This document shows positions 47,981 through 48,499 of a stretch of 64,000 nt of DNA, piece after piece. The notes beneath the pieces are model-generated. The model was not told the DNA's origin, made no database searches, and was given only the letters and a program-made list of their open reading frames with translations. The translations under genes and the position numbers were made by a program. The stretch comes from an uncultured delta proteobacterium (GTDB lineage: Bacteria; Myxococcota_A; Polyangia; Polyangiales; Polyangiaceae). Location: assembly GCA_963839305.1 (NCBI GenBank), contig CAWIUL010000011.1, positions 2,569,561-2,633,560 on the forward strand, written 5' to 3'. How positions within the stretch are numbered: position 1 is the stretch's first letter; each line of letters begins with the position of its first letter.

Positions 47981-48499
47981 TCATCGGAGGTTGCCGATGG
48001 CGTTCTTGATCGTGTCCGCCTCGGATTTCATGACGTTCGAGAGCGTGGTGAAGGTCTGGTTCTGCGCGTTCACTTCCTGCTGGATCTGGAGGAAGTACAT
48101 GTTCATCTCCTGCGATTGCTGGAGCGATTGGTCGAGGCTGCCGTTGCCGACGCCGGTGCCCGTTCCCGTTCCCGCGCCGAAGCCGCCGCCGACGGACGAG
48201 CCGCCCATTCCGCTCGGCCCCTCCGCGTTCGTCGCGAGGCCCATGTTGCCGTGTCCGCTCGCCATCATCGGCGACGACGGGCCCATGTTGCCGACGCTCG
48301 AGCCTCCGCCGCGAATGGCCGCGGCGACGAGCGAGCCGCCAGGCAGCGACTCCATCGCCGCCTCGGCGCCTGCGACGAGCGTGCTCGCGCCCTTGGCGAG
48401 GACCTCGCCGAAGCTCACGCGAACGGGGGTTGGCGTGGGCCGCGCCACGCTGGGGACGGTCACCACATCCGATCGAACAGGGGGAATACCATTGGTCAT
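47981..48499 (-). CDS. Gly/Ser-rich protein with C-terminal Q/N-rich amphipathic helix ending ...NLR (reminiscent of flagellar-axial/T3SS-needle C-terminal segments)
   Basis: Start chosen at MTNGIPPV, leaving 90 bp to the divergent kinase. Gly-rich middle (GGSSVGGGFGAGTGTGTGVGNG), then SLDQSLQQSQEMNMYFLQIQQEVNAQNQTFTTLSNVMKSEADTIKNAIGNLR*. Confidence 0.5.
   Translation of the reverse strand: MTNGIPPVRSDVVTVPSVARPTPTPVRVSFGEVLAKGASTLVAGAEAAMESLPGGSLVAAAIRGGGSSVGNMGPSSPMMASGHGNMGLATNAEGPSGMGGSSVGGGFGAGTGTGTGVGNGSLDQSLQQSQEMNMYFLQIQQEVNAQNQTFTTLSNVMKSEADTIKNAIGNLR

Follow-up and report, generated by a model that had tools for sequence, protein, structure and literature searches.

We found that a gene at positions 47981..48499 (minus strand) of a 64,000-nt stretch of DNA from an uncultured member of the Polyangiaceae (GenBank assembly GCA_963839305.1, contig CAWIUL010000011.1, positions 2,569,561 to 2,633,560; the whole stretch is referred to below as the window) codes for a 172-amino-acid (aa) protein that belongs to a large family of Myxococcota proteins, which is unannotated and has no match in Pfam, NCBIfam, or the PDB. 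Judging from its sequence and from the gene order around its relatives, the protein is probably (we put the probability at roughly 0.6) a divergent, Myxococcota-specific axial subunit of the SctF/HrpA class. It would thus be one of the small proteins that are exported by type III secretion and polymerize into a needle, a pilus, or a filament.

The family is widespread in this phylum. A profile search of 1.84 billion representatives retrieved 1462 of them (at 50% identity) with an E value of <=1e-3 and 318 with E <=1e-10, while 235 clusters at 90% identity matched at E <=1e-3, all of them 160-195 aa long and none with a Pfam domain. Scanning one genome per species gave at least 361 species genomes with a copy. 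The 80 loci listed all come from Myxococcota, mostly Polyangia, and include those of Labilithrix luteola DSM 27648 and of a Nannocystis metagenome-assembled genome (MAG); a further search added members from cultivated Myxococcia (Archangium violaceum and Anaeromyxobacter paludicola). The C-terminal motif that had drawn attention to the gene in a first-pass annotation, made from the sequence alone, is kept in the orthologues: an alignment of 29 sequences (50-94% identity to the window protein) has 32 invariant columns. That annotation spoke of a remnant or repurposed axial-family component. We retain the axial assignment and reject "remnant," since the family is both large and strongly conserved; "repurposed" may apply to the window copy, which is not part of a secretion cluster.

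Relatives in type III secretion clusters

The strongest evidence for a needle-type protein is the genomic context of its relatives. In many Myxococcota, synteny places the family gene directly before sctI-sctJ within a type III secretion operon or among translocator and chaperone genes, and the adjacency to sctI recurs in four cluster layouts and in two classes of Myxococcota. In several well-known systems, it is the needle or pilus gene that stands immediately before sctI-sctJ (prgI-prgJ-prgK, ssaG-H-I-J, and hrpA-hrpZ-hrpB-hrcJ), and in the last of these the pilin gene heads the operon with sctI and sctJ, as the family gene does in the relatives.

One layout is a short locus found in the Myxococcia (A. 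violaceum, A. paludicola, and a 176-kb soil contig) with the order fam-SctI-SctJ-x-SctQ-x-SctRSTUV, in which the family gene is the first of the operon and, besides SctI, the sole candidate for a needle-type protein. Another, SctV-fam-SctI, is present in the Nannocystis MAG and in one other MAG. A separate SctI gene directly follows the family gene in relatives (TIGR02497, 4.8e-4; PF17001, 0.0012 to 0.096, the latter being the range for the second gene of the Myxococcia short locus), and we therefore ruled out that the family itself is SctI.

Five Polyangiaceae MAGs carry a substrate cluster that begins with a small protein, a 210-250-aa protein, an LcrH/SycD-type chaperone (1.9e-14), and an SseC-family translocator (PF04888, 32.9 bits versus a cut-off of 30.2), and continues with a second hydrophobic protein, a TPR lipoprotein, the family gene, SctI, another protein, and a stand-alone FlhB-C-terminal-like protein (8e-19). 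By eye, the protein after SctI has the look of a FliK/SctP C terminus; it has no match in Pfam. Clusters with the translocator, the chaperone, SctI, and the FlhB-C-like protein are seen in locus L025 (6040-11850) and also in L019, L021, L022, and L023. A translocator-bearing cluster in Polyangiaceae contrasts with published surveys, according to which myxobacterial systems have no translocon and type III genes are mostly those of the order Myxococcales.

The fourth layout, found in three loci, includes a sigma factor of the FliA/WhiG family (3.3e-46). It runs p110, family gene, TPR protein, a protein similar to the partner encoded next to the family gene in the window (see below), sigma factor, SctI, SctJ, a protein with weak similarity to FliG, SctL, and SctN, and one of the three loci was seen to continue with SctO and SctQ. 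The TPR protein matches LcrH/SycD (2.8e-11), SctY (5.5e-10), and the needle-chaperone family CdsG (1.4e-7). Non-flagellar type III clusters of non-flagellated Myxococcota have some flagellar-flavored traits (L008, 12238-12969 and 15256-16323; L096, 5660-6370): besides the FliA/WhiG sigma factor, the protein after SctJ has weak FliG domains (N, M, and C), and the SctQ homologue has a FliM domain. The neighbors SctI and SctJ are of the non-flagellar types.

The substrate clusters also contain a second family of 172-250 aa (e.g., L038, 11936-12454; L022, 6339-7091), with a helical N-terminal part, no Pfam match, and a C-terminal helix like that of the family studied here (the L038 example ends in ...SLFSNMLQTDHQASMTAINNIRGG). 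It is a possible tip or filament paralogue, and with it these clusters have more than one axial-type protein, which leaves room for our family to be a type III protein other than the main subunit, i.e., an inner rod-needle adaptor, a tip or cap protein, or an exported regulator with an axial-type C-terminal helix. An SFxxVL motif weakly similar to the N terminus of myxobacterial SctI (hhalign P, 0.026-0.08, N terminus only) and the name FliE, given to one member by the Joint Genome Institute (JGI) pipeline, point the same way. We nevertheless find such a role unlikely: in the Myxococcia short locus there is no other candidate besides SctI, the C terminus of the family is closer to SctF than that of the local SctI family is (P 6e-5 versus 0.002), and neither the SctI models (PF17001 and TIGR02497) nor the FliE model matched any of 50 members scanned (29 close and 21 distant). 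The JGI name itself ("flagellar hook-basal body complex protein FliE," member P0400) was rejected as an identification of the family, as no model match accompanies it.

Similarity of the C-terminal helix to needle proteins

A resemblance of the C terminus to SctF needle proteins had been noted in the first-pass annotation, and profile comparison gave it support where plain scans against the Pfam and NCBIfam models found nothing. For this comparison, 15 PrgI-type sequences from the database were aligned with the SctF proteins MxiH, PrgI, BsaL, YscF, PscF, EscF, and SsaG. Of these seven, PrgI was confirmed by exact database matches and the other six against PF09392 (E 8e-16 to 4e-29). Comparison of the family (64 sequences) with this alignment by hhalign gave a probability of 64.7%, a P of 6.2e-5, and a score of 30.9 over 37 columns, in a register that pairs residues 136-172 with MxiH 47-83 and reaches both C termini. 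Enlarging the family set to 73 sequences left the register unchanged (P 9.5e-5), as did comparison with either needle subset, Prg/Mxi/Bsa (P 0.0014) or Ysc/Esc/Ssa (P 0.03), and over the runs the probability ranged from 59 to 65%. In 200 column permutations of the needle alignment, the mean score was 11.3 (standard deviation, 2.2; maximum, 17.9), and the reversed needle profile scored 10.5. The resemblance, end to end at the C termini with a P of 6e-5 to 1e-4 and above all 200 permuted controls, is backed both by the sctI-sctJ adjacency and by weak matches of distant members to curated models, all of them below threshold: HrpF in 4 of 21 distant members (best E, 8.3e-4; none in close relatives), T3SS_pilin_HrpA in 5 (best, 0.0087), HrpA_pilin in 2, and T3SS_needle_F in 1 (E 0.2).

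Any long amphipathic helix rich in Gln and Asn might look like a needle C terminus, and the likeness could then be a matter of convergent composition without relation to secretion, as was first offered as an alternative. The fact that no curated model reaches its threshold and the shortness of the aligned segment would fit this explanation. However, the permuted and reversed controls score far lower than the real comparison, the optimal alignment ends at both C termini in every subset, and the position beside sctI recurs in the cluster layouts described above, so that we discarded convergence as very improbable.

The other resemblance proposed at first, to the rod and hook proteins FlgE/FlgG, was not sustained. 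The C termini of Escherichia coli FlgB, C, E, F, G, K, and L gave hhalign P values of 0.18-0.25, and neither Flg_bb_rod (PF00460) nor Flg_bbr_C (PF06429) matched any of the 50 members at E <=10, and we rejected rod/hook homology. A remnant of a FlgE/FlgG-type protein in a non-flagellated lineage might be suspected from the C terminus, which by eye ends like that of FlgE (..LVNLR), from the FliA/WhiG sigma factor, weak FliG, and FliM domain in one class of related loci, and from the sigma-28-like -10 element of the promoter described below. Nonetheless, there are no rod, hook, motor, or other flagellar structural genes among the neighbors examined, where SctI and SctJ are non-flagellar, and with the comparisons above this makes a flagellar origin barely conceivable.

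Gene and protein architecture

The gene starts with the ATG at 48499 and ends with the stop codon at 47981-47983, and a Shine-Dalgarno sequence, GAGG (48506..48509, minus strand), lies 6 nt 5' of the ATG. Translation of the open reading frame (ORF) agrees exactly with the one first described, including the C terminus, ...QEMNMYFLQIQQEVNAQNQTFTTLSNVMKSEADTIKNAIGNLR. A longer ORF of 194 aa with a GTG start was ruled out as the gene because all homologues share the Met start of the 172-aa form. The protein has no Cys, no Trp, and a pI of 5.2, and it is indeed Gly rich (16.9%), with Gly, Ser, Thr, Ala, and Asn making up 70% of residues 55-118.

AlphaFold2 (AF2), run with 29 sequences, predicted two helices and a disordered linker at an overall predicted local distance difference test (pLDDT) score of 56, too weak for a fold search. 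The helices span residues 30-51 and 120-171, with disorder at 55-118, and the C terminus is a single long helix of 52 residues (pLDDT, 71-85). Along the minus strand, residues 1-29 (48413..48499) form a conserved, Pro-rich N terminus, predicted to be non-helical (..RSDVVTVPSxARPTPTPVRVS) with no Sec or Tat signal, which may serve as a type III export or chaperone-binding segment. They are followed by the N-terminal helix FGEVLAKGASTLVAGAEAAMES (residues 30-51; 48347..48412) and a conserved LPGG..A.RGG segment (residues 52-66; 48302..48346), in which F30, G44, A45, A48, L52, G54, and R63 are invariant in the alignment. Residues 67-118 (48146..48301) are a variable, Gly/Ser-rich disordered insert (pLDDT, <50; lowest conservation) with a conserved EGP triplet, and residues 119-172 (47984..48145) are the long C-terminal helix, predicted by AF2 and aligned to needles by hhalign over residues 136-172, with its needle-like motif ..YFLQIQQEVNAQNQTFTTLSNVMKSEADTIKNAIGNLR. 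The family consensus has the same order: ..RPTPxPxxxxF.., a short helix, LPGG..A.RGG, an insert of 24-74 residues that varies in length and sequence and is rich in Gly, Ser, Thr, and Ala, and a C terminus of the form ..NLxYLQLQ....ENRxFTxLSNVxKxxHDTxKNAIxNIR.

The window operon and its partner protein

In the window, as the first-pass annotation had described, the family gene heads an operon with a 123-aa helical partner and a Tat esterase and is divergent from a Ser/Thr kinase (about 48568-50367; Pkinase, 4.7e-44). The partner gene (47585..47956, minus strand) starts 24 nt after the family gene, and its stop codon is overlapped by the GTG start of the esterase (46665..47588, minus strand; 307 aa; PF00756, 7e-8), whose N terminus, read from the sequence, carries a twin-arginine motif and a lipobox-like Cys. 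This layout, a family gene followed by a partner of ~125 aa, is found in 76 of the 92 loci, none of them with a type III gene within 10 kb; Labilithrix luteola (CP012333) is among the genomes with this type of locus. The esterase comes after the partner in 36 of these 76 and in 38 of all 92. Synteny with related MAGs extends to the remaining neighbors in the window, which are purB, dinB, a TM2 protein, kinases, CcmE, an HNH protein, and an MbnB/DUF2063 pair.

Window-type and cluster-linked copies interleave in a neighbor-joining tree and are 53-64% identical over the conserved regions. Among the 80 loci listed there is one locus per genome, save for a MAG with two sister copies; therefore, the two layouts may reflect one gene in alternative locations and not a pair of ancient paralogues. 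In that MAG (GL85_DN_concoct_11), the cluster-linked copy (L023) and the window-type copy (L086) are sisters in the tree, a relationship that suggests recent duplication or gene conversion between the loci, and L023 has a partner gene of its own at 7695-8117.

The partner is acidic (pI 5.0), with a disordered, Gly/Pro-rich half (residues 1-54) and a small four-helix domain (residues 55-113; pLDDT, 70-82 in AF2). Its gene is conserved directly downstream of the family gene, and its family occurs in 81 loci, comprising window-type loci and one cluster-linked locus. Profile comparison relates it to the gene next after the family gene of a deep-branching MAG (probability, 91.6%; P 8e-7), and a match over its C-terminal part (probability, 67%; P 5e-5) connects it with the partner-like gene before the FliA-family sigma gene; such partner-like genes lie directly upstream of the FliA/WhiG gene in three loci. 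Neither Pfam, a PDB profile search, nor a single-sequence AF2 model submitted to Foldseek gave a significant match, and hhalign to SctI and needle proteins gave nothing significant. The architecture, with a disordered N-terminal half and a helical C-terminal half, is compatible with FlgM. The FlgM model (PF04316) found no match in 23 partner members, and hhalign to three FlgM sequences was not significant (P 0.07-0.1). Neither a sigma gene nor a TPR gene stands beside the window operon. The partner would most likely act on the subunit, either as its dedicated chaperone or as a regulator that is itself exported.

It could be argued that the window-type copy, together with its partner and esterase, has been taken over for a role independent of type III secretion after loss of the apparatus, for instance in a cytoplasmic helical complex with the partner. 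The 76 loci without a nearby secretion gene would be explained in this way, as would the near confinement of the partner family to window-type loci and the few type III genes that surveys report in Polyangiales. On the other hand, the C-terminal helix is equally conserved in window-type and cluster-linked copies, one promoter motif is common to both kinds of locus, partner-like genes also stand beside type III clusters, one MAG has both kinds of locus as sister copies, and the protein has no other export signal. We consider such a takeover improbable.

A conserved promoter-like motif

Upstream of the window operon, at 48519..48545 (minus strand), there is a bipartite promoter-like motif formed by GCAAC (48545-48541), a 14-nt spacer, and GCCGATGG (48526-48519). 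Transcription from it is predicted to start near 48511 on the minus strand. The consensus, CGCAAC-N14/15-GCCGA(T/A)(G/A)GG, is found 39-167 nt upstream of the start of the family gene in 71 of the 92 loci with at least 10 of 12 matches, while only 7.8% of random segments of the same loci contain it, and its exact pattern occurs 81 times in 3.35 Mb, in 42 cases with a family gene downstream. Within the window alone, the motif is not significant (3 matches versus 0.96 expected); its significance comes from positional conservation across loci and from nothing else. A scan for consensus sigma-70 promoters and terminators gave nothing informative.

In the Polyangiaceae substrate clusters, the same motif stands before the first gene and before others, and in the form TCAAC-N14-GCCGATAAG it appears in a locus with a gene for the FliA-family sigma factor. 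The sigma-28 consensus is TAAA-N15-GCCGATAA (PMC2859248, PMC8325347). The -10 half and the spacing agree with it, whereas the -35 half differs, and for this reason an extracytoplasmic function (ECF)-type sigma factor may also be the one that uses the motif.

Two further observations concern the promoters of relatives. The family gene of the Myxococcia short locus has a sigma-54-like element instead, GGCAC-N5-TTGC or TGGCAC-N5-CTGA (L094, about 9880-9900; L093 and L098, about 9870-9890). In L025, three copies of the motif (6016-6042, 8955-8981, and 11890-11916) are each followed by the same sequence, which would read "MGGQRK" if translated. It is probably a conserved leader and not a true N terminus, and the called starts of those genes are therefore likely wrong.

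Proposed role and comparison with known systems

If the window protein is an axial subunit, its 52-residue C-terminal helix would be the conserved polymerization element, homologous to the helix that lines the lumen of the needle, with the short N-terminal helix packing onto it. The Gly/Ser-rich insert would then be displayed on the filament surface, a topology more like that of flagellin or the Hrp pilins than like the tight needle hairpin, and the signal-less, Pro-rich N terminus would carry the export signal. The window copy would have moved into a separate three-gene operon with an acidic partner and a Tat-exported lipoprotein esterase, driven by a sigma-28-like promoter whose motif recurs at the type III substrate clusters of related genomes. 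Our computational results show membership in the family, its architecture, a profile similarity limited to the C-terminal helix, the gene neighborhoods, and the conservation of the promoter motif; we infer the export and polymerization of the protein, the role of its partner, and that the window genome encodes a secretion apparatus. The window operon is best read as a detached part of a type III system or a derivative of one.

Several results weigh against this reading. The window protein had no match in Pfam, NCBIfam, or the PDB even at E <=10, nor did the 29 close members against Pfam and NCBIfam models at that level, and in all 50 members no model of these databases reached its threshold. 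Sequence and profile searches of PDB sequences with the family gave Gly-linker artefacts only and no needle. The hhalign probability (59-65%) is under the level usually taken as proof, and the similarity to needles, over 37 columns, does not extend beyond the C-terminal helix; the N-terminal helix has no detectable similarity to needle helix 1 and does not align with it. SctF is a helix-turn-helix hairpin, 70-90 residues long, whose turn has the PxxP motif. The window protein lacks PxxP and is twice the canonical needle length, its 172 aa including a 29-residue N-terminal extension, the Gly/Ser insert (24-74 residues in the family), and two helices ~70 disordered residues apart. As for the locus, the window copy is outside any secretion cluster, with the partner, the esterase, purB, and the kinase as neighbors. 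The parts of the window tested hold no type III secretion gene, a phmmer search with SctI, SctJ, SctL, SctN, and SctO of a related cluster had no match there, and the closest relatives have a window-type copy only, among the 80 loci listed. Furthermore, most of the type III core genes reported in surveys belong to the order Myxococcales, not to Polyangiales (PMC10196010, PMC11821767); hence, the window genome may have no apparatus to export the protein.

The features shared with SctF (PF09392: MxiH, PrgI, YscF, EscF, SsaG) are the C-terminal helix with the pattern ..SN..K...D.....I.N.R-COOH, the lack of a signal peptide, and, in relatives, a gene directly upstream of sctI-sctJ. The Hrp pilins and HrpF (PF09589, NF053530, PF06266) are also larger and more variable than SctF, with conservation at the C-terminal helix, and it is to these models that the distant members have their weak matches; however, these are below threshold, lineage and sequence are different, and a link to plant hosts is neither known nor expected. 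With flagellin and other flagellar axial proteins, the family has in common terminal helices around a variable center, a sigma-28-type -10 element, and, beside relatives, a FliA-family sigma factor, but it has no flagellin domains and no profile similarity to rod, hook, or junction C termini. The order family gene, TPR protein (CdsG, SctY, LcrH), and partner-like protein in one class of loci recalls the YscE/YscG and CdsE/CdsG chaperone pairs, and a partner-like gene directly before the FliA/WhiG gene, with the two-part architecture of the partner, recalls FlgM, although no significant sequence, profile, or fold match connects the partner with any of these proteins.

The "needleless" non-flagellar type III systems of Myxococcales include T3SS* (MXAN_2434-2464) and T3SS(2) (MXAN_5643-5654) of Myxococcus xanthus. 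The Archangium and Anaeromyxobacter loci that are headed by a family gene have the layout of the published "short" locus (inner rod, SctJ, SctQ, and SctRSTUV), in which an inner rod but not SctF has been reported. Myxobacterial type III systems are described as having no SctF, tip, or translocon (PMC3459982, PMC10849154, PMC12075869). Abby and Rocha (2012) placed them, without these components, at the root of non-flagellar type III secretion, and Myxococcus predation work up to 2025 models a needleless apparatus that passes effectors to a Tad pilus. In the literature that we searched, no myxobacterial needle protein is described and the opposite is stated. In contrast to these "needleless" systems of Myxococcales, a needle-like gene precedes sctI in the loci presented here, and some Polyangia clusters include an SseC-family translocator and an LcrH-type chaperone.

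It is possible, although we regard it as doubtful, that the family is the overlooked axial subunit of the "needleless" systems and is controlled by a sigma-28/exported anti-sigma checkpoint in which the partner would act as FlgM does. Were this so, the early-branching myxobacterial systems would build a surface-decorated filament, and the reconstruction of the first non-flagellar type III system, in which SctF had been lost, would need revision ("needleless" is a label that dates from 2010-2012). New here are the conserved needle-like gene at the head of the short locus, the Polyangia clusters with translocator and chaperone, and a sigma-28-type promoter and sigma factor tied to these genes. 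Such a finding would change the view of how the machine works and of the origin of the injectisome from the flagellum, while the free-standing operon of subunit and partner, kept across many Polyangiaceae, would be part of a distributed secretion regulon or else a case of a needle protein put to a new use.

Other genes in the window

Two more features of the window are conserved in related genomes. At 57098-58740 (minus strand), an RiPP (ribosomally synthesized and post-translationally modified peptide)-modification enzyme of the MbnB/TglH/ChrH family (4e-107) lies beside a DUF2063/HvfC-type protein (7e-19), and the pair is kept in synteny in related MAGs. At 43706-44146 (plus strand), beside dinB, a TM2-domain protein with a long Gly/Pro-rich N-terminal repeat (GGYGPPPG...) is likewise kept in related loci.

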